64,000 nucleotides of DNA from an uncultured Acidobacteriota bacterium (GTDB lineage: Bacteria > Acidobacteriota > UBA6911). The stretch covers positions 160,001 to 224,000 of the forward strand of contig CAWJKZ010000013.1 of assembly GCA_963843575.1 (NCBI GenBank), given 5' to 3'. The notes beneath the pieces are model-generated. The model searched no databases. It was not told the DNA's origin and saw only the letters and a program-made list of their open reading frames with translations. Positions 26,742 through 61,688 of the stretch are shown here, piece after piece (within the stretch, counting starts at the first letter, position 1; the number at the start of each line of letters is the position of its first letter). Both the position numbers and the translations under genes were made by a program.

Positions 26742-27184
26742 ATCGGAACCCGCATGCAAAGCACCATGGATTCGCTTCGTTTCGCCACTTTAGGGGCAAA
26801 GGGGTCGAAGGGTCAAGAGGCAAAGGACGTCGTCAGGCACCCGCCTCGTGTCCTGGGAGTTGTCCATACACCCACCGTGCGCCTTTTAACCCAATCCGGC
26901 GTCCGAGCGGAGACCATCGACGGCCGCTTTGGTCAGTCGACTTTCGGCGCAGGCCACCGGGAGAGAGTAGCAGTAGCCCTCAGCCGAGAAGATATTTATA
27001 ATTCACCCCCTGACAAATCGCGAGCGCCGGCAGTGTCGAAACACTGCCGAATAGCCAAAAGCTTAATCGATTGTGCTATATGCCCCAACCTGGCCGACTG
27101 GGGAGAAATTCACCGTTAGCTGTTGAATAGTGCAACATGCAATTCTACTGAACTTTACGTCGATTCGGAGCCGGGTGGCTGCGA

Positions 27185-27201
27185 GCGGTGACGAAATTGC
27201 T
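27185..27201 (+). promoter_or_regulatory. Possible sigma54 (-24/-12) promoter for the mtr-like operon
   Basis: GG(27187-88)-N10-GC(27199-200) with TTGCT; -24 context (CGGTGA) deviates from TGGCAC. Confidence 0.3.
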
Positions 27202-27278: not shown

Positions 27279-29324
27279 ATGACTATGAGGGCGAAGAGAC
27301 CGACGGCGGTTCTTCTCTTTCTTTCTTTTTTCTCGATGGCGGCGCTAGGAATTGCCGCGTTTGTGAATGACTCGGAGAAGGTTTACAGTGCCATGGAGAA
27401 GGCCTTTTATCTCTCTCCTGAGGATGGTATCTGGATCCGCCCGGGTGTGAATCTAGCGATCCAGAACATCACGATACCGGCAGACCGCAAGCCGGTGGTT
27501 ACGTTCAGGATCACCGACGACAAGGGGCAGGGGTTGGATCGGACGGGTACGCTCACTCCCGGCACCGTCACGACCAGCTGGGTTTTCGCCTACATCCCGG
27601 AGAATGCCACGCAATACGTCGCCTACACGGTCCGAGCCCAGAAGAGCCCGATCACGAACGTGACGGAAATTCAGGCGTCGAGCGACCAGAACGGCAAGTA
27701 CGCCAGCCTGGGCGACGGGACCTACACCTACACATTCGGCACGACGCTCCCGGCCGCGTACGACACGACCGCGACCCACACGCTGGGCGTCTACTCGGTG
27801 CGTGACCTGCGCGAGTTCGGCCTGAGCCGCTACATCACCAACGTGCTGAACACCTTTGTGCCGGACGGCCGCGCGGTCACGAAGACCCGCGACGTCGTGC
27901 GCACCGCGGCCTGCAACCAGTGCCACGACCCGCTCGGGCTTCACGGCGGTTCGCGCCAGGACGTGCTGCTCTGCAACCTCTGCCACACGCCGCAATCAAA
28001 GGATCCTGACACGGGCAACACCGTCGACATGAAGGTGATGACGCACAAGATCCACATGGGCGCGGACCTGCCCAGCGTGCAGGCCGGGCAGCACTACCAG
28101 ATCATCGGCAACCAGCAGAGCGTCAACGATTACTCCGACGTCGTCTTCCCGCAGGACATTCGCAATTGCACGACCTGCCACAAGGACACGACCCAGGTCA
28201 ACAACTGGCTGCTCAACCCGACCCGGGACACCTGCGGCTCCTGCCACGACAACATCGACTGGACGAGCGGCAAGAACCACGTGGCCGGCCCCCAGCCTGA
28301 CGACCGCTACTGCGCCAATTGCCACTGGCCGGAGAGCGACTACGAGTACGACGCGACCATCGCGGGCGCTCACGTCCCACCCTACAAGTCGAAGCAGCTG
28401 TTCAACCCCAAGTTTGAAATGCTCGAAGTGACCAACACGGCTGCGGGCCAGTCCCCGACCGTCAAGTTCAAGGTCACGGATAAGACCGGCAAGGCAATTG
28501 CCCCCGCCATCATGGGCGGGACCTCGGGCCGCCTGTCACTGACCCTTGCAGGCCCGACCTCTGATTACCGCTGGTACCTGACCGAGGCGGCTAACACCGC
28601 GGAGTACGCCGACGGCGTGGCCACCTACACCTTCAAAGGAGTGATCCCGGCGACGGCCACGGGCACCTACGCCGTGGAGGCGGAGGGCTATCTTAACGCC
28701 ACTCTCAATCCCGGTACCGAGAAGCAGTTGAGCTACCGCGACGCATTTGATAACGTTGTAAAGCCGTTCGCGGTGACCGGAACGCTGGAAAACCGGCGCA
28801 CTGTGGTCGATCTGGCGAAGTGCAACAAGTGCCACGACAAACTGCAGCTGCACGGCAACAACCGGAACCAAATCGAAGCGTGCGTGGTTTGCCACAACCC
28901 GGCGACCACCGACGCGGCCCGCAGGCCCGCGGCAGCCCTCCCCGCGGAAGCGATCGACATGAAGATCATGATTCACAAGATCCACACGGGGGCGGAGCTG
29001 GCGAACGATTACACCGTCTACGGCTTCGGCAACACCGCAATCAACTTCAACGAAGTCGGTTACCCGGGCGACCGCCGCAATTGTCTCGGCTGTCACGTCG
29101 GGACTTCCTACCAGGTGCCCCTTGCTGCCTCGGTCACCTCGTCCACGACGCCGCGCAGCTTCTGGGATCCCATGAAGCCCACGTCGGCGGCGTGCCTGGG
29201 GTGCCACGACTCTGTGGACGCGGCCGCGCATGCGTTCGTCAACACGGCGACGTTCGGAGAGGCCTGCTCGGTCTGCCATAAGGAAGGTGCGGACGCTGCG
29301 GTGACAAAGGTCCACGCCCGATAG
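27279..29324 (+). CDS. mtrC: MtrC/OmcA-family decaheme c-type cytochrome
   Basis: Ten CxxCH motifs in two blocks of five, each preceded by a beta-rich domain; repeated MKxMxHKIHxG and FPQDIRNC/YPGDRRNC. Confidence 0.85.
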   Translation: MTMRAKRPTAVLLFLSFFSMAALGIAAFVNDSEKVYSAMEKAFYLSPEDGIWIRPGVNLAIQNITIPADRKPVVTFRITDDKGQGLDRTGTLTPGTVTTSWVFAYIPENATQYVAYTVRAQKSPITNVTEIQASSDQNGKYASLGDGTYTYTFGTTLPAAYDTTATHTLGVYSVRDLREFGLSRYITNVLNTFVPDGRAVTKTRDVVRTAACNQCHDPLGLHGGSRQDVLLCNLCHTPQSKDPDTGNTVDMKVMTHKIHMGADLPSVQAGQHYQIIGNQQSVNDYSDVVFPQDIRNCTTCHKDTTQVNNWLLNPTRDTCGSCHDNIDWTSGKNHVAGPQPDDRYCANCHWPESDYEYDATIAGAHVPPYKSKQLFNPKFEMLEVTNTAAGQSPTVKFKVTDKTGKAIAPAIMGGTSGRLSLTLAGPTSDYRWYLTEAANTAEYADGVATYTFKGVIPATATGTYAVEAEGYLNATLNPGTEKQLSYRDAFDNVVKPFAVTGTLENRRTVVDLAKCNKCHDKLQLHGNNRNQIEACVVCHNPATTDAARRPAAALPAEAIDMKIMIHKIHTGAELANDYTVYGFGNTAINFNEVGYPGDRRNCLGCHVGTSYQVPLAASVTSSTTPRSFWDPMKPTSAACLGCHDSVDAAAHAFVNTATFGEACSVCHKEGADAAVTKVHAR

Positions 29325-29330
29325 GTTCTT

Positions 29331-30260
29331 ATGTTCACAAAACGTGTTCTGCAGATCACGCTTTTGTTTTCCACCCTGTTCGTCCTGGCGGGGATTCTGA
29401 CCGGCGCGCAAGCGCCGGCGCAGAATCCCCCCCAGGGGGCCGCCCCGGCGACCGGGAGCGTCAATAACGAGGACTGTGCCGTTTGCCACGAGGACGTCGC
29501 GAAGGCATTCGACAAGAACCCCCACGCGGTGCTCGAAAAAAGCCCGAAGTTCAGCATGAAGAACTCGTGCGAATCGTGCCACGGCCCCGGGGAAGCCCAC
29601 GCGAGCAACGACGGCGACCGCACCAAGATCATCACGTTTCGGGATCAAGCCAAAAAGCTCTACAACGAGCAGTGCCTGACCTGCCACCGGAAGCACCCCG
29701 AGGTGAACGGTTTCGCGGGGAGCGCGCACTCGAAGTTCGGGCTTTCCTGCACCGATTGCCACCGCGTCCACCGCCCGGCCCCGACGACTCGCCTGCTGCA
29801 GCAGCCGGTTAACAACCTGTGCTTCAGCTGCCACGTGCAGAGCCGCACCGATTTCTCGAAGCCCTTCCATCACCGGGTGCGCGAAAACTCGATGCGTTGC
29901 ACCGATTGTCATCAGCCCCACAGCGGCATCGATTCGCGTCAGGTCCGGACCACCAGCTTCGGCGACTCTCCCTGCTTCAAGTGCCACACCGACAAGGAGG
30001 GCCCGTTCGTATTCGAGCACGCTCCGGTCGTGATACGCGATTGCCAGGCCTGCCATCAGCCCCACGGGTCGAACAACTCCAAGATGCTCGTGCGCGCCAC
30101 GGTGCGGGCGGTTTGCCTCGAATGTCACACGACCAGCAACGGTGTCCTTGGGGCCTCTCCGCCGGCATTCCACGACATCCGCAGCCCCCGGTTCCAGAAT
30201 TGCACTACCTGTCACGTGAAGATTCACGGCTCAAACGCCGACGTGAAATTCCTCAGGTGA
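29331..30260 (+). CDS. mtrA: MtrA/DmsE-family periplasmic decaheme cytochrome c
   Basis: Ten CxxCH motifs; GPFVFEHAPV, CHQPHGS, CTTCHVKIHGSN C-terminus. Confidence 0.9.
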   Translation: MFTKRVLQITLLFSTLFVLAGILTGAQAPAQNPPQGAAPATGSVNNEDCAVCHEDVAKAFDKNPHAVLEKSPKFSMKNSCESCHGPGEAHASNDGDRTKIITFRDQAKKLYNEQCLTCHRKHPEVNGFAGSAHSKFGLSCTDCHRVHRPAPTTRLLQQPVNNLCFSCHVQSRTDFSKPFHHRVRENSMRCTDCHQPHSGIDSRQVRTTSFGDSPCFKCHTDKEGPFVFEHAPVVIRDCQACHQPHGSNNSKMLVRATVRAVCLECHTTSNGVLGASPPAFHDIRSPRFQNCTTCHVKIHGSNADVKFLR

Positions 30261-30283
30261 GGACACAGGAGCTAACAACCGTG

Positions 30284-32440
30284 ATGCGCATGGCCCGCCA
30301 ACATATGTCGCCTGCTGCCCGACCCTCGTATTTGACCGCCGCGGCGCTCATGATGCTGCTGGCTGTCGTTGCGGCGCCCCTGTCAGGACAGTCCCCCCCG
30401 CCGCAGGAACAGAAGCAGGAGCCTCCGAAGGAGTCCGCCAAGGAGCAGTTCCGTGCGGACAGGGAGGGGCAGATCCTGGCCCCGACCCAGACCCCCTCCA
30501 TTCCATCCGATGAAGGCTTCACCCTTGGCGCCTACCAGGGTCATGCCGACGTCGAACTCGGATATCGCTGGCGTTCGGACGTCTCGGGTAACACCGATGT
30601 CTACCGGAGCATGGTCAACCTCGGGAGCGGCCCGAAACTGCTTCGGTCGAACTTCTCGTTGCGCTCCAACTACGGTGCCGGTACCCTGTTCGACCGGTTG
30701 GACGTTTCCGCAAACAGCTGGGGCGGCGACCCGTACAACACCCTCCGCATCAGCTTCGGCCTTTCGGACAAGTACGAATTTCGCGCGAACTACCGCAACC
30801 TGAACTACTACAACTATCTGCCGCAGTATGCCAACCCGCTGCTGCTCACCCGCGGCATCGCCTTCGGGCAGCACAGCCTGAATGTCACCAACCGCACGAG
30901 CGACTTCGAATTGAAGCTGTTCCCCAACAGCAGGGTCCGCCCCTTCGTGGGCTATTCGCGCAGTTCCGGCTTCGGCCCCGGCTTCACCACCGCGGAGTTC
31001 ACGGGGAACGAATTCCTGGTGGAAACGAACTGGCGCTACTCGTCGGACGACTATCGGGGCGGCGTCGAAATCTCGCTCCCCAAGACCGTCTTGACAGTCG
31101 AGCAGGGCTATAGGACCCTGCGCAACGACACCGGCGTCGATTCCGGCCCGAACAACGGCAACAACCCCAATGCGAGGTTCCTCGGAAACCCGGTCTTCCT
31201 GACCTCGCTCGACCGCGGCTACCACGACCGCACTACCCTGCCGTTTACCAAACTGGTAGCGAAATTCACCCCTTTCCGGTCGCTGAAGGTCACCGGCCGG
31301 TACATCTACTCCATGGCCGACCTCGACTCCAGTTACGGCGAGGTCACGTCGGGAGCGTTCGCCAACCTCGCGGAACGGCTGGTTTACCGGGCTGGTCTGG
31401 ACAACTTCGACACCCACGCCAAGCGGCCGGACCACAACGGCAGCTTCCTGGTCGAATTCTCACCCTTCAGCAGGCTGACCCTTCTCGACCAGTTCGAGAG
31501 CCGCAACAATCACACGAGCGGGTCCGCCCTGCTGGCGTCGATCTTCTACGGCTCACGCTCGTTGGCCGGACCCGGTCCGACGAGCGATGCCACGATCACC
31601 GACCTCGCCCGCTCGTACCTCGCGTTCAACCGGCTGAGCAACCTTGCCGAGGCCGAGTTCGACCTCCGGTGGGGCTTTGCCGTCCGCGGCGGCTACCGGT
31701 ATACCAATGCGGATGCCACGGTGGGCGACGCGGAGGGGAGTGACCTCATCGAAGGGGAAAGTTCCTCATACTCGCAAAACACGGGCATCGTCGGGGTGAC
31801 CTACCGGAAAGCCCGCTGGCTCCGCCTTGGTTTCGATTACGAGAAGAACGACACGAACGGCACGCTTACCCGGACCGATCTCCTGAATTTCGATCGTCTC
31901 CGGTTCGACTGGCGCGTCGGCTCCTGGCATCACTTCAGCACCAGCGGAAGGATCTGGGGTCTGCGCAACAGCAACGACCAGAGCGACATCGATCTCCAAT
32001 CCCACAACCGCAACTACAGTTTGGAACTCAACTACGACCCGACCGAACGCTACCATCTCAGCCTGGACTACTCCCGCTCCAGCATTCTCTCCGATATCTC
32101 GATCCTGCTCCCGCAGACGCTTCGGCTCGACCGGTCCCTCTTCGACGAAAAGAGCCACGGCCTGGGCGGCAGCATGGGGGTCGGCTTGTACCGCGGGACG
32201 CGCGTCGATTTCGGCTACCGGGGGATTTTCAACAGCGGCACCGCGCCGCTGGCGTACCACCAGCCTTTCGCGGAGCTGACGGTGCCCCTGCAGCACCGGC
32301 TGGCGTTCAAGACTTACTGGCAGTACTTCGGATACAACGAGAAGTCACCCTTCGGCGGGACCACGATCGACCGGGGTCCGCGTGGGTTCCAGGATTTTCA
32401 CACGCACCTGGTGACATTCTCGATCGCCTACCTGTATTAG
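30284..32440 (+). CDS. mtrB: Outer-membrane beta-barrel porin, MtrB/PioB-like (start uncertain, 30281-30305)
   Basis: Signal peptide, alternating aromatic beta strands, C-terminal aromatic residue, position after the MtrA-like gene. Confidence 0.7.
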   Translation: MRMARQHMSPAARPSYLTAAALMMLLAVVAAPLSGQSPPPQEQKQEPPKESAKEQFRADREGQILAPTQTPSIPSDEGFTLGAYQGHADVELGYRWRSDVSGNTDVYRSMVNLGSGPKLLRSNFSLRSNYGAGTLFDRLDVSANSWGGDPYNTLRISFGLSDKYEFRANYRNLNYYNYLPQYANPLLLTRGIAFGQHSLNVTNRTSDFELKLFPNSRVRPFVGYSRSSGFGPGFTTAEFTGNEFLVETNWRYSSDDYRGGVEISLPKTVLTVEQGYRTLRNDTGVDSGPNNGNNPNARFLGNPVFLTSLDRGYHDRTTLPFTKLVAKFTPFRSLKVTGRYIYSMADLDSSYGEVTSGAFANLAERLVYRAGLDNFDTHAKRPDHNGSFLVEFSPFSRLTLLDQFESRNNHTSGSALLASIFYGSRSLAGPGPTSDATITDLARSYLAFNRLSNLAEAEFDLRWGFAVRGGYRYTNADATVGDAEGSDLIEGESSSYSQNTGIVGVTYRKARWLRLGFDYEKNDTNGTLTRTDLLNFDRLRFDWRVGSWHHFSTSGRIWGLRNSNDQSDIDLQSHNRNYSLELNYDPTERYHLSLDYSRSSILSDISILLPQTLRLDRSLFDEKSHGLGGSMGVGLYRGTRVDFGYRGIFNSGTAPLAYHQPFAELTVPLQHRLAFKTYWQYFGYNEKSPFGGTTIDRGPRGFQDFHTHLVTFSIAYLY

Positions 32441-32501
32441 GGCCAATTAGAGCACAAAGCATCACGAAAACGTTACGGCGCCGCGATTCCCCACCACAAT
32501 A

Positions 32502-32664
32502 CATGTGGGTCCGGGCTTCAGCCCGGACGTCTCTTGATCTGACCTAATGTGGCGACGGGCCACGTTATAGCGACCGCAAACAGCGTCCGGGCTGAAGCCC
32601 GGACCCACATGAATTGTGTTTGGGTCGGGCGCCAACCCTTGGACAGCCTCTTCAAGCCCGGACG
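32502..32664. repeat. REP doublet (REPIN/BIME-like), copy A
   Basis: Perfect 28-bp IR CATGTGGGTCCGGGCTTCAGCCCGGACG (32502-32529/32584-32611); second copy with the same spacer at 47761-47914. Confidence 0.8.
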
Positions 32665-32734
32665 CAGTTTGCAGTCGCTATGCTGGGGAGCTGGAGCTCA
32701 ATGAGCTCTTGCTCCTGAATCGGACGCCCCCCCC

Positions 32735-32774
32735 AAAAAAATCAGCGCCCTTCCTCCGGGAAGAAGAAGGGCGC
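32735..32774 (-). terminator. Rho-independent terminator of sRNA copy 1
   Basis: Minus strand GCGCCCTTCTTC-TTCCCG-GAGGAAGGGCGC-TGATTTTTTT. Confidence 0.7.
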
Positions 32775-32864
32775 CGCTCGGGTGTAGGTGGGTATTAAGG
32801 GTGGAAAGGAGGTTGTATGTCGGAACGATTCTCCTTCTTTGGGTTGTACTTTGCTCTATCCGAC
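32735..32864 (-). ncRNA. Putative small RNA, copy 1
   Basis: Paralogous to 33060-33162; CU-rich core AACCUCCUUUCCACCCUUAAUACCCACCUACACCC; ends in a 12-bp GC hairpin plus U-tract; sigma54 site upstream. Confidence 0.65.
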
Positions 32865-32873
32865 ATTAGTGGA

Positions 32874-32889
32874 AGCACACTTTGCGCCA
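32874..32889 (-). promoter_or_regulatory. sigma54 promoter of sRNA copy 1
   Basis: Minus strand TGGCGCAAAGTGTGCT = GG-N10-GC, 11 nt before the conserved TCGGATAGAGCAAAG start. Confidence 0.65.
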
Positions 32890-33059
32890 TCGGCTTCGCC
32901 TGCTGCCGAATTGTGCCATAATCGTTTTCTGCTAAATCACTTACGAAAGAACACGTCGGTTGGGATGCAGCGGAAGTACAGCAGAATTTGGGTTTACTCA
33001 CCCGATGAGCGGGTTATTTGGCACAAATTTGGCCTGATGCCGCGCCTGCATGTCCCGAC

Positions 33060-33162
33060 AAAAAATCAGCGCCCCTCCTCCGGGAAGAGGAGGGGCGCCG
33101 CTCGGGTGTAGGTGGGTATAAGGGTGGAAAGGAGGTTTATAACTCCTTTGCTCTATCCGAGA
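33060..33162 (-). ncRNA. Putative small RNA, copy 2
   Basis: Same 5' end, CU-rich core and terminator as copy 1, with a compensatory C-G/U-A change in the terminator stem. Confidence 0.65.
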
Positions 33163-33171
33163 TTATCTATT

Positions 33172-33188
33172 AGCAAGCCCTCATGCCA
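33172..33188 (-). promoter_or_regulatory. sigma54-like promoter of sRNA copy 2
   Basis: Minus strand TGGCATGAGGGCTTGCT; near-consensus boxes but GG-N11-GC spacing (possible homopolymer error). Confidence 0.5.
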
Positions 33189-33448
33189 GTTTGAATGGGC
33201 TGGTTGGTATTCCTGTAAAGTTGGCAACAGCAAATCTTACCGCTGTATTTCGCCGCAGCCTCAAATCGGCGCTCGGTCTTTTTCGGGTGATCTGAGCCAA
33301 CAACGGTGGTAAAACACCCACTCACACGTTCTAAGTGCGCGGTTCCGCTTGAATGCCATTCTCGTGCCTGGCAGCGGGGTCGTGTAAACCTTTCGGTTGC
33401 TTCAATGTATCGGGGCGGCATGATAACCTATTACGGTGGCCGACATAT

Positions 33449-34330
33449 ATGAAGCGTGACACGGAGCAGTACAGTAGTGGTGTGCGGAGGGTTCTCGTCA
33501 TTACCCTTGCGCTGAACCTCGCTGTCGTGGCAGGGAAGCTGTTCGCCGGCATCCTGGCCGGTTCCCTGAGCGTGGTCAGCGACGCGCTGCACTCCTCGGC
33601 GGATTCGCTGAACAACATCGTCGGGATCTTTATAATCCGGGTCGCGAGCACGGCCCCCGACAAGGAGCATCCTTACGGCCACCACAAGTACGAGACGCTG
33701 GGAGCCTTCGGAATCGCGTGGTTCCTCCTTGTGACCGCCTTCCAGGTGGGTCAAGGCGCGGTCAAGCGGCTGCTGGGTTGGACACAGTCGGACGTCGAGG
33801 TCACCTCGCTGACGCTCGGAATTATGGTGGCAACACTTCTTGTGAACTTTTTCGTGTGGTTTTACGAGCGCCGGCGTGCGCGTGAGCTCGACAGCGCATT
33901 CCTGATGGCCGACTCGCAGCACACCCTGAGCGATATCGGGGTAAGCACGTCGATCCTGATCGGTCTGCTGCTGCTGCGCTTCGGGATCATCGACTTGGAC
34001 GCCGTGCTGGCCCTTGCGGTCGCCGGCATCATCACGTTCGCAGCCTACCAGATATTCGCGAGCACCATCCCCGTCCTGGTGGATCGGGCGCCGGTGGCGC
34101 CGGAGTTCGTCGCCGAAATCGTCCGCTCGACCCCGGGGGTGGAGTCCGTGCACGGTATCATGTCGCGCGGGGTGCCCGGCATGACCTTCATTTCCATGCA
34201 CCTGGTGGTGACTCCGCTGAGCACGCCCGAAGCCCACGCCATCACCGAGGATGTGGAGCGCAGGCTGGCGGAAAAGGTCGGTCCTTGCGAGGTGACGATC
34301 CACATCGAACCCGATGACAGGAGTTCCTAA
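33449..34330 (+). CDS. Cation diffusion facilitator (FieF-like) transporter
   Basis: SDALHSSAD, PDKEHPYGHHKYE, ADSQHTLSD, C-terminal VTIHIEP. Confidence 0.92.
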   Translation: MKRDTEQYSSGVRRVLVITLALNLAVVAGKLFAGILAGSLSVVSDALHSSADSLNNIVGIFIIRVASTAPDKEHPYGHHKYETLGAFGIAWFLLVTAFQVGQGAVKRLLGWTQSDVEVTSLTLGIMVATLLVNFFVWFYERRRARELDSAFLMADSQHTLSDIGVSTSILIGLLLLRFGIIDLDAVLALAVAGIITFAAYQIFASTIPVLVDRAPVAPEFVAEIVRSTPGVESVHGIMSRGVPGMTFISMHLVVTPLSTPEAHAITEDVERRLAEKVGPCEVTIHIEPDDRSS

Positions 34331-34382
34331 CGGGGCCGGCGGCGGGGCAGATCCCATCGTTGACGGCCGGCGTGAACCTTCC

Positions 34383-36484
34383 ATGATGAACCCGGGCAAG
34401 CCGAAACCAGACCTCCTGCGTGCGGACTCGATCGAGTTTGCGGACGTGTTCAATGCCGATCCCGTATCGGGCCGCATCACGCTCGGGAACGACCGCTACG
34501 TGATGTTCGATGCGGAGGCTGTCGGCAAGATGCGCCGGGAGCTGATCGACAATCTCGGGTGGGAGGTTGCGCGCGGCATCCTCGAGCGTGTGGGTTACCA
34601 GTCCGGACGAAACGACGCCCGTCAACTGGGGGCGCGCTACAGTTGGCCGTCCGATGAGGAGTGGCTCCGGGCCGGGCCTCGCCTGCATTTCCTGGAAGGG
34701 ATGGTCAAGGTTCGGGTGCGCGAACTGGACTTCGCACGCGGGGAACGCCGGTTTCGCATGAAGGGCGACTGGATCGAGTCCTACGAAGCCGAGCAGCACC
34801 TGAAGCAATACGGCGTCGGGTCCAGACCGGTCTGCTGGTCGCTCGAGGGCTACGCCACAGGGTATGCGAGCGAGTTTTTCGGCGAGGACATCGTCTGCTT
34901 CGAGGTCAGCTGCCGGGGCAAGGGCGACCCGGTTTGCAGCTTCGAGCTGCGGCCCTCCCGGGAGTGGGGCGGGGCCGCGCTCCCGATGCAGGAGATGCTG
35001 GCGGCGGTGCGCTTCACCGAGAGGTTCGATCGCTGTCTGCGCTCCATCAGTGAAATGGGGTGCGAGCTCGAACAGAGCTCCCTCGACGCGATTGTCACCA
35101 CCGACGCCAGGGGGATGATCACCTCGTGCAGCCAGGGAGGAAGCGAGCTCCTCGGCCTGCTGCCGGGAGAGGCGGTCGGGAGGCCGGTAAGCGCATTCTA
35201 CGCCAGGGGGCGCGCGGAGGCGGCGCGCCTCATGGAGCGCCTCCGACGCGAGGGCCGCATCCGCTACTATCTCACCGATATCATCACGGCCGGCGGCCGC
35301 AAAACCCCGATCGCCCTGGCGGCGTCGGCGATCAAGAACGCGCTCGGCCACGTCGTCGGTACTATCGGGGTGGCCCACAACCTCACCGAGATCCGGCGGC
35401 TCGAGGATGAGCTCGCCGCCAAGAACAGGTTCATGGCCAATATCCTGCAGGATTCGGCCGACGCGATCATCACGATGGACCCGGACGGCACCATCACGTC
35501 CTGGAACCGCGGCGCGGAATCCATCTTCGGCTATCCCGCCGACGAGGTGCTGGGCCGGTCCATCGAGGTCATCGTTCCCGCCGATCTACTGCGCGGCCAA
35601 CGAACTGGAACGGATCGCGCAGCGCGTCAGGAGCTCACGGGCGCGGTCCGCAACTACCAGACCGAGCGCATGACGAAGGACGGCCGGCGGCTCCAGGTGA
35701 TTTTCACCCGCACGGCGATCCGCGACGAAACCGGGCGCGTCGTCGGCAGTTCCGCGGTCCTGAAGGACGTCACCACGTTCCGGAACCTGGAACGGCAGCT
35801 TGCCGACGCCGAGCACCTGGCGACCCTGGGAGAGCTCTCGGCCGGGCTGGCGCACGAGATCAAGAACCCGCTCGCCGGCATCAAGGGCGCGATCGATGTC
35901 ATCCGCGACTCGCTCCCTGTCAACCGACCTGCACCGGGACGTGCTCGGGGACGTGTTGCACGAGGTGAACCGGATCGACAGGATCGTGCGGGACCTGCTG
36001 AACTATGCCAAGCCGAAGCCCCCCTCGCTCAACGCCATCGCGCTCCCGGAGGTGGCGCAGAGGCTGGTCGCCATGGCGCGCAAGTCCCCGAAGACCGAAG
36101 GCGTCTCGATCCGAGCTCGAGCAGTCCGGGGACATCCCCGGTTTCACGGGGGACGAAACGCAGCTCGAACAGGTGCTGCTGAACCTTCTGCTGAACGCCC
36201 AGAGCGCCGTCTCCCCCGGGGGCCACATCCTCGTCCGGCTGGCGTTCGAACCCGAGGAGCTGACGATCCGGATGGAGGTGGCGGACGACGGGCCGGGCAT
36301 ACCGGACGAGATCCGGAAACGCATCTTCCAGCCGTTTTTTACGACCCGGACGGAGGGGACCGGGTTGGGGCTGGCAACTTGCCTCAAAAACGTGCAGTAT
36401 CATGGCGGGACCATCAACGTGTTCAGTGCGCAGGGTCAGGGGACGCGGTTTGTCGTCACCTTGCCGCTGCTTTGTCGCTTTTAG
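34383..36484 (+). CDS. XylR-N/V4R-PAS-PAS sensor histidine kinase (frameshifts near 35590-35625, 35920 and 36115)
   Basis: GPRLHFLEG..SYEAEQH..PVCW.LEGYATGY..E..C..KGDPVC.F (XylR/V4R); two PAS domains; GLAHEIKNPL; QVLLNLLLNA; GTGLGL. Confidence 0.85.
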
Positions 36485-36496
36485 GCGATCTGACGC

Positions 36497-37884
36497 ATGC
36501 CCAAGGAAACGATACTCGTAGTCGACGATGAACGCCTCGTGCGCTGGTCGCTCCAGCAGAAGCTCGAGCAGTGGGGCTATCACGTCAGCCTCGCCGAGGA
36601 TGGCGCCACGGCGCTGGGCCGCGTCCAGCTCGACAATCCGGACCTGATCACCCTCGACGTGAAGCTTCCCGGATATGACCGGGATCGAGGTCCTGTCGGA
36701 GCTGCGCAACCGCAACGTGCACGTGCCCGTGATCGTGATCACGGCCTTCGGCGTGGTCGACGACGCCGTGCGCAGCCTCAAGCTCGGCGCCTACGATTTC
36801 ATCGAGAAGCCGATCAACTTCGAGAAGCTGGAGAATTCCGTCCGCAACGCCCTGGAAACGCGCCGGCTGCGCACCGAGGTCGCGCGCACGCACGAAATCC
36901 AGCGCAGCGAGTTCAGCGTCGACCGGATCATCGGCGTCTCCGACCACATCCGGGAGGTCCGCGAACTGATCAAGAAGATCGCCGGCAGCGAGGCTTCGAC
37001 CATCCTGATCCAGGGGGAGAGCGGGACCGGCAAGGACCTCGTCGCCCACGCCATCCACTACGAGTCGACGCGCCGCGACCGCCCCTTTTTCGCCATCAAC
37101 TGCGCCGCCATCCCCGAAAACCTGATGGAGTCCGAGCTGTTCGGCCACGAAAAGGGAGCCTTCACCGACGCCCGCTCCCAGAAAAAGGGGATGTTCGAAA
37201 TGGCCGACGGCGGCACCCTGTTCCTGGACGAGGTCAGCGAAATGACCCTCGGGATGCAGGCGAAGCTGCTGCGGGTCCTCGAAGGGCAGTCCTTCCGGCG
37301 CGTCGGCGGCGTCAAGAACATCAACGTCGATGTGCGCGTGATCGTCGCCTCCAACCGCAATCTCGAGGATGCCGTGCGGACCTCGAGGTTCCGGCAGGAC
37401 CTCTATTTCCGGCTCGCCATCATCCCCGCTGACCCTGCACCCGCTGCGGGAACACAAGGACGACATCCCGGCGCTGCTCGAGCACTTCATCCAATACTAC
37501 AACCAGAAATTCCGGAAGAGCATCCAGGGGCTCACGAAAGACGCCGAGGAACTGCTCCTGAACTACGACTGGCCCGGCAACATCCGCGAGCTCAAGAACG
37601 CCATCGAGAGGGTCATGATCCTGGCGGACGGAAACCGGGTGGCTTCGAAATACCTGCCGATCCGGATCTCCGAGGGGGGAGTGCTCCCCGTGCCGATGGG
37701 AGACGGGCAGGGCAACGGCGGCATCCAGCTGCCGGCCGGCGGCACTTCGCTCTACGACGTCGAACGCGAACTCATCCGCCAGGCGCTGGAACAATCCCGG
37801 GGCAACAAGACCACCGCAGCCCGTCTCCTCCGCATCACCCGCGACACCTTGCGCTACAAGGTGAAAAAGTACAACCTGGACTGA
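36497..37884 (+). CDS. NtrC-family sigma54-dependent response regulator (frameshifts near 36672 and 37425)
   Basis: REC domain; [50 protein letters not shown], Fis-type HTH. Confidence 0.92.
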
Positions 37885-37898
37885 ATCCGGCAACGACT

Positions 37899-40800
37899 AT
37901 GAAAAACCACCGCCCGCCTCTGCGCGTCGCCGTCGCAATCCTGCTGTCCGCCGCGGCTGTCCTGTCCACGCTCTACCTGGGCCGCGTCGGCGCTTCCCCG
38001 GCGCCTCAAGCGGCCCCGGACAAGACCGCAGCCGAAGCGGCCCGCAGGCGGGCCGTCGGAGACGGTCCTGCGTCTCAACAATCTCGGCATCGCCGAGTTG
38101 GAGCAGTTTCACTTCACGCAGGCAGCCTCCTATTTCGAGAAGGCGCGGGCCCAGGCGCCGCACCTGGTGCCCCTCGCCGTAAACCTGGCCATCGCTCTCT
38201 TCTACGACCGGAAGAACGACGAGGCCGAAGCGCATCCTGAAAGGCGTCGTGGCGACAGACCCGAAGCAGCGGGAAGCTCACTACGTGCTCGGGTTGTTGC
38301 ACCGCTCAACGGGAAGCAACGAGGAAGCGCTGGCTGACATGAAGGCGGCGCTCGCGCTCGATCCGCAGGATCCGGCCACACTTTACTTCGCCGGGGCTCT
38401 GAACTCGGCCCAGCACAACTGGGAGCCTGCCGTCCGCTACCTGCGTGACGCCTTGGCGCGCGAACCATTCAACGTATCCATCTACTATGCGCTGGCGACC
38501 GCGCTCGTGCAAAAGGGGGATACTCCGCAGGCCGAGAAGGTGATGGCCCAGTTTCAGGAGCTCAAGTCGCGCGGCACCGGGACGAGTTATGGCAACCAGT
38601 ACCTGGAGCAGGGGCGCTATGCGCAGGCCATTCAAATCCCGGGCCCGGGCGGGCCGTTCGGCCTGCCCGGCGCCCGCCCCCGCTTTACCGACCTATCCGC
38701 CGCCGGCGGGTTGACCTTTGTCCATGCGGGTCCCCGCGAGGCACCGCTCTTCGACGGCGCAGGCCGTCCGGACACCGCGGTGCCCGCCGCATTTGGTTCC
38801 GGTCTCGCCTTCCTGGACTACGACGGCGACGGTCGGCCGGACCTCTTCCTCGCCAATGTTTCGGGCCCCGGGGTCCTCTATCGAAACAAGGAGGGTGGCA
38901 CGTTCGAAGCCGTGGCCGCGTCGGGCATCGGCTTCGAGGGGACTGCCATGGGGGTCGCGGCGGGCGACTACGACAACGACGGGTTTCCTGATCTATTCAT
39001 CGCCGGAGTCGATGGGAGCGCGCTCTACCACAACGAGGGGAAGGGGACTTTCAGCGACAAGACGTCGCTCCTTTCCCAGGCCCTCAACGGGTCCTGGGCG
39101 ACGAGCCCGGCGTTCATCGACCTCGATCACGATGGCGACCTCGACCTGTTCATCACTTGTGCCGCCAAACCGGGGCGACCCGCCGCCCGCAACCTGTTGT
39201 ACAGGAACAACGGGGACGGCACGTTTGCCGAATCGGGCGAAGCCGCCGGCACGGCCGCTTCGGGTTTTGCGGCCTCGGCGGTCTACATGGACTACAACGG
39301 TTCCCGCGACATCGACGTGATCGTGCTCGGTGCGCCTCGGTGGAACCTGTACTCGAACAAGCGGGACGGCAGCTTCGCCGACTCGACCGTGGCCGCCGGC
39401 GTTCCGCCTTCCGATGGGTCGCTCGGGGCAGCCGCCGGCGACCTGGACGGCGACGGCCGGATCGATCTGTGCAGCGTGGGGGCCGGCCGTCCGGGAGTCG
39501 CCCGGATCCTATGGAATCAAGGGTCGGCCTACAAGATCCAGGAAGTGCCGCTCCCCTCGAAGGCGCAGCTGTGGAACGTGCGGGCACTGGATTACGACAA
39601 CGACGGCGACCTCGACCTCCTGCTGGCGGGCGACGAACTCCGCCTCCTCGAGAACGACGGCCGCAGGAGCTTTCAGGACGTGACCTCCGCGGTCGGGCTC
39701 GACCGGATCCAGGCTTCAGGGGCGCGCGCCCTCGCCGTGGCCGACTACGACCGGGACGGCGACCCCGATGTCGTCGTCAGCCGGTGCGGCCGGCCGGCCG
39801 TCCTGCTGCGAAACGACGGCGGCAACCGCAACCGCTTTTTCCGGCTCTCCCTGCGGGGCAAGGCGGACAACTACTTCGGCGTGGGAGCGAAAGTCGAGTG
39901 GGCCGCCGGCGGCCTGTGGCAGCACAGGGAACCGGACGGGGACGCGGGTTACATGAGCCAGAGCTCGGGCGAGATGCTGCTCGGACTGGGCAGGTTCGCC
40001 GCACCCGACTACGTCCGGGTTTTGTGGCCTACGGGGGTGCTGCAGTCGGAGATACCCGCCAAGGATGCCGGCAAACTGGTGCTGACCGAACTCGACCGCA
40101 AAGGCACCTCGTGCCCGATTCTATATGCCTGGAACGGAAGCGCCTACGAGTTCGTGACCGATTTCCTCGGCGGCAGCGGCATGGGTTACCTGCAGTCGCC
40201 CGGCAATTACGGCATTCCGGATACGGACGAATACGTCAAGATAACGGGAGCACAACTCCGTCCGCAGGGGGACCGGCTTTCCCTCAAAATGGCAAATCAG
40301 CTCGAAGAAGTCATGCTCTTCGACTCGGTGCGCCTGCTGGCGGTCGATCACGCCGCCCACACCGAAATATTCCCGAACGAACGCCTCATGGCCGCGCCGC
40401 CGTTTCCCGGCCACCGTATCTACACGGCGACTTCGCCCCGGCCCGTCGCGTCGGCCCTGGACGGCAGCGGTGCATCCTGGCAGCACGCGCTGGCAGCCGT
40501 CGACCGGGATTATGTCCGTGGCTTCCGGTTGCTCCCGTTCAAAGGGTATGCCGAGGAGCACACGCTCGAGCTCGGGCTCGGGGACCTTCGCGGGAGCAGC
40601 CGCACCGTGTTGCTCATGGACGGCTGGATCGATTACGCAAACTCCAGCTCCAACTTCTCCGCCGCGCAGGCCGGCGTCAAACTGGTCCCCCCCTATCTGC
40701 AGGTGTGGGATTCCGGTGGCTGGCGCACCGTTATGCACGACATGGGGTTTCCGGCGGGATTGCCCAAAACAATGATCGTCGACCTGTCGGGGAAACTCCC

Positions 40801-60734: not shown

Positions 60735-61688
60735 TCAGAAGTTCTTCCTGAGATCCAGCCCAGAGTACAGCGAAGCCACCTGGTCGGCATAGCCGTTGAA
60801 CATCAGGGTGCTGCGTTTGAAGAATTCCCCGATTCGCCTCTCTTTTGCCTGGCTCCAACGCGGGTGATCGACCTCCGGGTTGACGTTGGAGTAGAAGCCG
60901 TATTCGCTCGGCGCCGAGAGATTCCATGTCGTCGGCGGCTGGTTGCGCACGAAGTGGATCTTCACGATGGATTTGATGCTCTTGAAACCGTATTTCCACG
61001 GAACGACGAGGCGGATCGGCGCCCCGTTCTGGTTGGGGAGGACCTCTCCGTAAAGGCCGACCGAGAGCAGGGTGAGCGGGTGCATCGCCTCGTCCATCCG
61101 AAGACCCTCCACGTAGGGCCACTGAAGCACGGACCGGCGCTGCCCGGGCATCCGGCTCATGTCCAGGAGCGTCTCGAAGGCGACATACCGGGCCTTGGAC
61201 GTCGGTTCGACGCTCCGGATCAGCGAGTTGAGCGGGATCCCGATCCACGGGATGACCATCGACCAGCCCTCGACGCAGCGCATGCGATAGACACGCTCCT
61301 CGAGCGACGGGTGCGTCTTGAGGATGCGATCGACGTCGTACTTGCCGGGCTTTGCCACTTCTCCTTCGATCGACACAGTCCACGGGCTCGGTTTGAGGGT
61401 GCCGGCGTATCGGGCGGGATCTTCCTTTTCGGTGCCGAATTCGTAGAAATTGTTGTAGCCGGTGACGTCCTTGAGCGGAGTGAGTTGCTCACCGCGGGTG
61501 CTGAGAGGGCTCTGCACGTACTGCAACCTCGTCGCCCCGCGCGCGGCCTCTTCGAAACCTGCCAGGGCGCGCACCGAGAACGCCGCCCCGGCGGCGACCG
61601 CCCCGGCCAGGAACTTGCGGCGGTTCAGGTAGACCTCACGCGGAGTGATTTCGGAAGACTTGAACGGATCGCGACTCTTGAAAATCAT
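60735..61688 (-). CDS. msrP: Protein-methionine-sulfoxide reductase catalytic (Mo) subunit
   Basis: [12 protein letters not shown] Tat signal, [43 protein letters not shown]. Confidence 0.96.

Follow-up and report, generated by a model that had tools for sequence, protein, structure and literature searches.

Tandem small RNA genes with predicted sigma-54 promoters and an anti-Shine-Dalgarno core in an uncultured family of Acidobacteriota

The Qrr small RNAs (sRNAs) of Vibrio are siblings of ~100 nucleotides (nt) with sigma-54 promoters, and the NtrC-family activator LuxO is encoded beside, and divergent from, one of the sRNA genes. Pseudomonas CrcZ/CbrB and NrsZ/NtrC and enterobacterial GlmY/GlrR are likewise sigma-54 sRNA genes whose two-component activator is either a neighbour or dedicated to them, with CrcZ serving as a protein sponge via A-rich motifs. 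Firmicute RsaE/RoxS offers a C-rich unpaired seed to G-rich Shine-Dalgarno (SD) regions and is linked to the remodelling of respiration; a redox-sensing two-component system induces it. Here we describe two tandem sRNA genes, sRNA-A and sRNA-B, on the minus strand at 32735-33188 of a 64,000-nt stretch of DNA (the window, over which all positions are counted) from the metagenome-assembled genome (MAG) of an uncultured soil Acidobacteriota bacterium (6.68 Mb, 88% complete).

Similar to Qrr, the locus has multiple ~100-nt siblings, a sigma-54 promoter, a neighbouring divergent NtrC-family activator gene, a conserved single-stranded region and an intrinsic terminator. Unlike Qrr, it belongs to a different phylum, matches no Qrr sequence or structure at expectation values (E) up to 10 and carries an anti-SD C-rich tract as its seed, and Hfq was not found in the 88%-complete genome. 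It shares the sigma-54 promoter and neighbouring two-component activator of CrcZ, NrsZ and GlmY, but has neither the A-rich motifs of CrcZ nor an Rfam match. With RsaE/RoxS it has in common a C-rich unpaired core and the proposed pairing with G-rich SD regions; it differs from those sRNAs, which have a sigma-70-type promoter, in fold and phylum, again with no Rfam hit. An unpaired anti-SD motif also marks the 'CCUCCUCCC' sRNAs ar14/NfeR1 and CcsR, which are among the best sub-threshold Rfam matches here; theirs stands in three hairpin loops, whereas ours forms a single long unpaired tract, with a further copy that is partly masked. According to PMC10746234, the ultraconserved anti-SD motifs of alphaproteobacterial ar14/NfeR1 are unpaired and silence several mRNAs at ribosome-binding sites, and NfeR1 is Hfq-independent and not sigma-54-driven.

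We conclude that the pair stands for a genuine sRNA family, not described before, whose type is known: siblings with an anti-SD seed that are predicted to depend on sigma-54 and an activator. That these are real genes of such a family we hold with high confidence. The fullest account, in which tandem sigma-54 sRNA genes are co-regulated with the mtrCAB electron conduit and act by an anti-SD mechanism, we consider moderately probable.

Two siblings and their family

32735-32861, minus: sRNA-B, long form, 127 nt; 5' GGAUAGAGC, AAGGAG:CUCCUU hairpin with a 20-nt loop, single-stranded C/U-rich core, terminator; covariance score 155.6 bits.
32735-32776, minus: intrinsic terminator of sRNA-B; stem 32743-32776, U tract 32735-32742.
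33059-33158, minus: sRNA-A, short form, 100 nt; 5' end, core and terminator as in sRNA-B; covariance score 104.6 bits.

The original prediction, made from the sequence alone, had called siblings of ~130 and ~100 nt at this site, and their lengths came out at 127 and 100 nt. The predicted 5' end of sRNA-B is the GGAUAGAG at 32861 and its predicted 3' end is the U tract running to 32735. Between them, the copies form a gap-free direct repeat of 82 nt, 324 nt apart and 84% identical. They share the 5' sequence GGAUAGAGCAAAG, and the core that had been called nearly invariant and CU-rich, AACCUCCUUUCCACCCUU(A)AUACCCACCUACACCCGAGC, differs by a single A. sRNA-A is without 27 nt of the 5' part of sRNA-B, and its AAGGAG:CUCCUU helix is re-formed over an 8-nt loop. 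The proposed 5' hairpin is borne out by the minimum-free-energy folds of both copies, in which AAGGAG pairs with CUCCUU; none of 200 shuffles folded as well as sRNA-B (-35.6 kcal/mol, z -3.33) or as sRNA-A (-40.9 kcal/mol, z -5.51). Each terminator is a G+C-rich hairpin of 12 perfect pairs (15 counting G-U) followed by a T run, and the copies differ there by exactly the compensatory C-G/U-A change and G-U wobble that had been described.

Across 61 distinct sequences, compensatory changes occur at 8 of the 15 terminator stem pairs, and standard pairs fill 97.3% of pair cells versus 50-62% when partners are slid by 1-3 columns. The AAGGAG:CUCCUU helix is near-invariant in the same set, with GAGGAG:CUCCUC as its single compensatory variant, and is retained over loops of 8-28 nt. 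Both CUCCUUUCCAC and CCCACCUACACCCGAG are invariant across all copies, and GGAUAGAG and AAGGAG are near-invariant in the long forms. As the prediction had it, similarity between copies and homologues stops at promoter and terminator, the flanks having otherwise diverged. Homologues show 1-nt insertions and deletions (indels) within the core and no start codon follows AAGGAG, which excludes a conserved open reading frame (ORF). With a predicted promoter of its own, an intrinsic terminator and no ORF, the element has the makeup of an independent transcription unit.

The 6.68-Mb genome contains exactly two copies, so the element is not a dispersed repeat and the mobile-repeat alternative named at the outset falls away. 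BLAST recovered homologues of 88-97% identity, spread over 6 genera, in 12 of 41 relatives (11/24 in the same family, 0/16 in other families). A covariance model built from 21 copies was then run on 51 genomes of one uncultured Acidobacteriota family; 20 of them, from 7 of its 11 genera, together contain 24 copies. An order-level search covered the identical set of 51 genomes. Elsewhere in the class, 86 genomes representing 21 further families gave none, searched with strict filters and with only the best candidates per genome scored. The locus is syntenic over 7 genera. A pattern scan of metagenome contigs yielded 59 stretches, from which the model aligned 70 full copies; 12 of the 59 carry two copies, and tandem short and long siblings recur on these 12 contigs as well as in other genomes. 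All 16 matching public genome stretches come from MAGs labelled Acidobacteriota, Acidobacteria or Terriglobia. In aggregate, the sRNA family is confined to one uncultured family of Acidobacteriota.

For membership in a described family we took a covariance score at or above that family's gathering score (Rfam 15, including Qrr, CrcZ, ar14, CcsR1 and ErsA), and the whole window gave no match. With E up to 10, the best were Pseudomon-1/ErsA (16.4 of 50 bits), ar14 (14.6 of 58.8) and CcsR1 (13.7 of 65.3); scores this far below gathering place the RNA outside ar14 and CcsR1 and agree with the claim of an undescribed family. We found no description of this RNA in the literature, with supplementary files outside the search, and no regulatory RNA described for Acidobacteriota in the literature searched.

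Traces of the locus are present in public data. Part of the stretch occurs in 20 runs, of which 14 are recorded as RNA (12 studies), all holding small shares. The RNA evidence consists of assembled contigs from four libraries of four studies, and such contigs carry neither strand nor RNA ends. The core of sRNA-B is covered in all four. Short core contigs of one soil run reach a word depth of 37-79 versus ~3.5 for contigs passing the terminator. One contig, X3, covers 32736-32857 and thereby falls 4 nt short of the predicted 5' end of sRNA-B. Outside 32730-32992 coverage in the four runs is nil, which is uninformative, as the flanks are not conserved among relatives. These contigs hint at an abundant RNA and, weakly, at discrete transcripts.

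Promoters, enhancers and neighbouring genes

32874-32889, minus: sigma-54-type promoter of sRNA-B, TGGCGCAAAGTGTGCT; GG-N10-GC, TGGCGC-N5-GTGC, 8/10 consensus positions.
33172-33188, minus: sigma-54-like promoter of sRNA-A, TGGCATGAGGGCTTGCT; 6-nt spacer, one in excess.
32989-33025, minus: enhancer (upstream activating sequence) of sRNA-B; dyads TGTGCCAAATAACCCG at -136 and CGGGTGAGTAAACCCA at -115.
33284-33320, minus: enhancer-like dyads of sRNA-A, TGGGTGTTTTACCACC and TGGCTCAGATCACCCG, in the intergenic region common with the metal-efflux gene; degenerate relative to TGGGT-N6-ACCCA.

We counted as sigma-54 promoters those with GG at -24 and GC at -12, exactly 10 nt apart, near TGGCAC-N5-TTGC and 11-13 nt before the start; as enhancer dyads, we counted TGGGT-N6-ACCCA with up to 2 mismatches, measuring distance from the promoter's first T. 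The -24/-12 motifs are where the original prediction had put them, TGGCGCAAAGTGTGCT at 32889-32874 and TGGCATGAGGGCTTGCT at 33188-33172, and lie 10 nt (sRNA-B) and 11 nt (sRNA-A) ahead of TCGGATAGAGCAAAG. That of sRNA-A departs from this spacing by its 6-nt spacer and overlaps a weak sigma-70-like CTGGCA-16-GATAAT; its ortholog in the sister genome (G001), TGGCACGAGGGTTGC, has the canonical 5-nt spacer. A doubt raised earlier over GG versus GGG at 33178-33180 was well placed: the spacing is one nt too long, the excess base being the C preceding TTGC and not an additional G.

The -24/-12 site is conserved in homologues. Of 23 genomic copies with upstream sequence, 19 have GG-N10-GC with at least 7/10 consensus positions 12-15 nt ahead of GGAUAGAG, and 53 of the 70 metagenomic copies match at least 8/10. 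The genomic exceptions are sRNA-A of the window (6-nt spacer), G005 (TTGACA-type promoter), G046 and G063. At G063 and G046 (loci L016 and L027), TTGAAA-N17-AATAAT ~55 nt further upstream replaces the sigma-54 motif, and an additional conserved hairpin and U-rich stretch lie between that promoter and GGAUAGAG; the arrangement suggests a longer or attenuated transcript.

Upstream, the TGGGT-N6-ACCCA dyad is present in 57 of 65 unique regions, versus 5.2 on average and at most 12 in 200 shuffles. Its start clusters at -115 or -103, with a weaker second site ~21 nt further upstream. In G017 and G043 the sole match to a strict pattern joining dyad and promoter was the sRNA promoter itself, and controls gave 0; G001, G007 and G004, where the sites are slightly degenerate, had no match. 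A regulon search of the window's own genome (G000) that demanded a strict dyad and promoter gave two unrelated matches and missed the window's degenerate sites, and we set it aside. In the same genome, contig C17 near 35033 holds TGGCAAGCGAGTTGCA with the dyad TGAGTCAAATGACCCA 145 nt upstream, a possible further sigma-54/enhancer promoter. The genome also encodes rpoN. Together, these patterns support a conserved sigma-54-type promoter with a phased upstream enhancer dyad, from which transcription would start, to end at the strong intrinsic terminator.

Beyond sRNA-A lies a divergent operon whose products include candidates for the activating system.

33353-34330, plus: cation diffusion facilitator (CDF; metal efflux), first gene of the divergent operon; Pfam Cation_efflux and ZT_dimer, NCBIfam CDF superfamily.
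34314-36484, plus: sensor histidine kinase, XylR_N-V4R-PAS-PAS-HisKA... (Pfam); frame broken in the HisKA/ATPase part.
36497-38240, plus: NtrC-family sigma-54 activator, receiver and AAA+ (Pfam); frame broken at ~36666 and 37424.

All three genes diverge from sRNA-A. Intact orthologs are a 697-amino-acid kinase in the sister genome and, downstream of the kinase in relatives, a 461-amino-acid activator of receiver-AAA+-HTH_8 architecture. We surveyed the neighbourhood with Pfam on 98 flanking ORFs at 15 loci besides the window. With the window included, 14 of 16 loci have the PAS kinase gene adjacent to and divergent from the sRNA; the other two are G005, where the gene is missing, and a locus ended by a contig edge. 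Activator orthologs (66-100% identity) separate cleanly from paralogs (up to 47%) and occur in at least 29 of the 51 family genomes and in 18 of the 20 with the sRNA. The two sRNA-bearing genomes without an ortholog are the fragmented G011 and G005, whose sRNA has the TTGACA-type, non-sigma-54 promoter. Taking a score above the curated NCBIfam cut-off as the test of an equivalog, we found the activator below every one (AtoC 460 of 714, NtrC 416 of 559, ZraR 408 of 760, LuxO 383 of 800, GlrR 317 of 763); it is thus an NtrC-family member without a named equivalog, and in this it departs from LuxO of the Qrr system (383 bits against a cut-off of 800) as well as from GlrR and NtrC. This NtrC-type response regulator would act through the phased TGGGT-N6-ACCCA enhancer, ~115 and 136 nt upstream. 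The signal may be a metal or redox cue, a guess from the PAS and V4R domains of the kinase and the neighbouring CDF gene.

Convergent with the sRNAs, on their other side, are the iron-respiration (Mtr) genes of an outer-membrane electron conduit.

27072-27201, plus: mtrC upstream region; dyad TGTGCTATATGCCCCA at 27072-27087, 114 nt ahead of the sigma-54-like CGGTGACGAAATTGCT at 27186-27201.
27279-29324, plus: mtrC (Pfam).
29331-30260, plus: mtrA-like decahaem cytochrome gene (Pfam).
~30281-32440, plus: mtrB-like porin gene, ~720 amino acids; assigned by position and length, with no Pfam match.

The Pfam neighbourhood thus confirms the predicted position between an mtr conduit and a sigma-54 two-component system. 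Ahead of the mtrC start codon by ~85 nt we found a conserved xGG-N5-AAATTGC with the right sigma-54 spacing, a weak -24 and a strong -12 element. A TG(T/G)GN-N6-ACCCA dyad stands 110-116 nt upstream of this motif at 13 of 15 loci, versus a mean of 0.37 and a maximum of 3 in 1000 shuffles. In all seven metagenome and G007 loci checked, the ORF downstream of an mtrC-type promoter is MtrC, and where the pattern is matched elsewhere by chance (five sites), the corresponding position lacks a dyad. Between dyad and promoter there is also a conserved block resembling TTCAACTGATGAAATTTACATCA, a possible IHF-type bending site.

MtrC is found in 16 of the 51 family genomes, 14 of which also have the sRNA, and six sRNA-bearing genomes gave no MtrC hit; the counts are confounded by relatedness, as a single genus supplies 9 genomes. 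From the resemblance of the dyad and sigma-54-like promoter of mtrC to those of the sRNA, a single activator probably drives both mtrCAB and the sRNA, which would thus be produced together with the conduit.

The core and its possible partners

The invariant, G-poor and apparently single-stranded core CCUCCUUUCCACCCUUAAUACCCACCUACACCC has as its first 10 nt a copy of the 16S ribosomal RNA (rRNA) 3' tail. The 16S 3' end of this genome is GAUCACCUCCUUUCU, to which core sequence ACCUCCUUUC is identical over 10 nt, in keeping with the anti-Shine-Dalgarno core of the original prediction; CCCACCU repeats part of the tail, and the core holds three CACC(C) motifs. Two full 16S rRNA genes of the same orientation stand just ~5.6 kb apart on contig C24 of this genome (344647-351832).

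The most economical mechanism is that the core pairs with the G-rich Shine-Dalgarno regions of several mRNAs and so would block ribosome loading, with the internal AAGGAG:CUCCUU hairpin partly masking the strongest anti-SD segment. We judge action by anti-SD pairing to have an even chance of being right. A more far-reaching version would make the RNA a sigma-54-induced decoy of the 16S 3' tail. In it, ACCUCCUUUC, gated by the SD-mimic hairpin and co-induced with the Mtr conduit by a metal- or redox-sensing two-component system, would re-tune strong-SD translation globally or dock on the 30S subunit via AAGGAG in place of acting on a few specific targets. This version we regard as rather improbable; if true, the decoy would act during the shift to extracellular electron transfer.

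Candidate partners were sought around the locus and across the genome. The initiation regions of mtrC, mtrA, mtrB, kinase, activator and CDF genes (up to 13 loci) showed no consistent pairing with the core; the mtrC initiation region of one genus has GGGUG...GGAGGU, which is not conserved in the window. A genome-wide duplex scan with 8-mer seeds returned only long gapped G-rich artefacts of this GC-rich genome. A 20-nt near-complement of the core at C19:194698 was rejected as chance, lying in a tandem repeat by a transfer RNA (tRNA)-like 3' half. That site (194698-194717, 18/20 complementary) is inside a GGGTGTCGGT tandem repeat and adjoins the tRNA-like 3' half (…GGTTCGAGTCC…CCA) and a 442-amino-acid ORF on the opposite strand; it may be an integration-site remnant.

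Within the window, a gene for an MsrP/YedY-like oxidoreductase with a twin-arginine translocation (TAT) signal (60735-61688, minus) has the initiation region GAGGGTGGGGGGGA, which includes a G7 homopolymer. Its contiguous match to the core (14 nt, with G-U) is the longest among 5110 genes.

Contrary evidence and rival explanations

Several observations weigh against the reading of sigma-54-driven, anti-SD sRNAs. At the level of RNA, contig X3 extends 39 nt beyond the terminator, and contig X1 (depth ~3, 95.6% identical) runs over 32767-32992, from the terminator to 130 nt upstream of the promoter, a reach that points to DNA carry-over or a longer transcript. As for structure, the AAGGAG:CUCCUU helix is so nearly invariant that covariation neither supports nor refutes it. 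With respect to regulation, the canonical sigma-54 promoter is absent in 4 of 23 genomic copies; G046 and G063 retain the activator though their sRNA promoters are sigma-70-like; 11 genomes have an activator ortholog and no sRNA, and in 8 of these loci rechecked with filters off none was found; and the window's own kinase and activator are frameshifted. On the side of targets, the core formed duplexes of -18 kcal/mol or below with 867 of 5110 crude initiation regions versus 1201 +/- 254 for 14 shuffled cores. Contiguous matches of at least 13 nt numbered 6 versus 2.6 +/- 2.7 in shuffles, with no enrichment. The best candidate, a 139-amino-acid protein at C25:218371 whose initiation region offers a 13-nt contiguous match and then GGAGG, was rejected when its site proved missing in all 8 homologues whose start region was read (9 found), the sister genome among them. 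Finally, the failure to find Hfq also counts on this side. Our target searches thus gave no signal above shuffled controls, leaving the blocking of ribosome-binding sites or the sponging of a protein an inference; these tests are weak, as they rely on one GC-rich genome and home-made gene calls, and they lower confidence in the mechanism without refuting it.

The frameshifts give most substance to the rival that both sRNA genes are relics in this genome, no longer induced or induced only via other promoters or activators. Compared with the sister genome at 87% identity, the kinase/activator region shows seven uncompensated +1 insertions (five in the kinase, at 35590, 35636, 35642, 35918 and 36113), which split the receiver, HisKA and AAA+/HTH parts among reading frames. 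Over 5.2 kb, mtrCAB shows this same identity, and all its indels are compensated or in-frame. The best other activator match in the genome is 45% identical, with no second ortholog, and the 6-nt spacer of sRNA-A fits the same picture. Yet all differences are single-base insertions in an 88%-complete MAG, where a local assembly or polishing error is possible; both sRNA sequences are intact; and one RNA library contains a contig of 95.6% identity. The frameshifts and the sRNA-A spacer reflect either a decaying module or an error-prone stretch of assembly. We consider relic status tentative, though a serious contender, and under the sigma-54 reading itself the module may be decaying in this genome, with the sRNA-A promoter mis-spaced and kinase and activator frameshifted.

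Among alternatives to anti-SD pairing, the RNA might titrate a protein, its GGA elements (5' GGAUAGAG and AAGGAG) or CACCC repeats sequestering CsrA or a C-rich-RNA binder. The genome encodes CsrA, which together with the failure to find Hfq keeps this rival alive; it also draws on the near-invariance of GGAUAGAG and AAGGAG in the long forms, the three CACC(C) motifs of the core and the lack of an mRNA target signal. But the sRNA has just 2-3 GGA motifs and known CsrA sponges carry many more, the short forms with a different 5' end retain one, and the invariant part is the G-free core and not the GGA sites. Titration is unlikely on this evidence.

Less probable still, and clearly improbable, is a cis-antisense role, in which mtrB read-through, bearing a perfect complement of the sRNA, would let the RNA act on the 3' end of the conduit mRNA. 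The sRNA is indeed convergent with mtrB at 9 of 16 loci, its terminator has no plus-strand T run and hence no stop to plus-strand read-through, and 14 of the 16 MtrC-bearing genomes have it. However, six sRNA-bearing genomes are without an MtrC hit, mtrC lies on a different contig in G004 and G005, the flank is proC-SpoIIE at three loci, and REP-like hairpins intervene between mtrB and the sRNA in the window. That the core stays invariant in all such settings speaks for partners in trans.

Those hairpins, palindromes with GTCCGGGCTTCAGCCCGGAC and nested inverted repeats at 32489-32681 between the mtrB stop codon and sRNA-B, have a 20-nt unit with 307 genome copies (1 mismatch allowed). That the locus is no RNA gene at all, but a repeat dispersed in the genome (REP or mobile element) or a gene for a small protein, we dismiss as having next to no probability: REP-like palindromes do adjoin sRNA-B, but the 307 copies contrast with two of the sRNA, synteny over 7 genera contradicts a repeat, the 1-nt core indels and missing start codon after AAGGAG speak against coding, and promoter and terminator are conserved.

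For the sRNA family as we read it, the predicted circuit is unusually complete, comprising sensor kinase, sigma-54 activator, enhancer, promoter, RNA and terminator, and it is physically, and probably also regulatorily, tied to mtrCAB-type genes for extracellular electron transfer. Acidobacteriota are dominant in soils and peat, with members mostly uncultured, and a recent preprint (10.64898/2026.05.27.727921) describes mtrCAB-type genes as transcriptionally active in members of the phylum from peat. The common promoter architecture offers a testable handle on how extracellular respiration may be switched on, and the sRNA would be a marker RNA detectable in soil, sediment and paddy metatranscriptomes.

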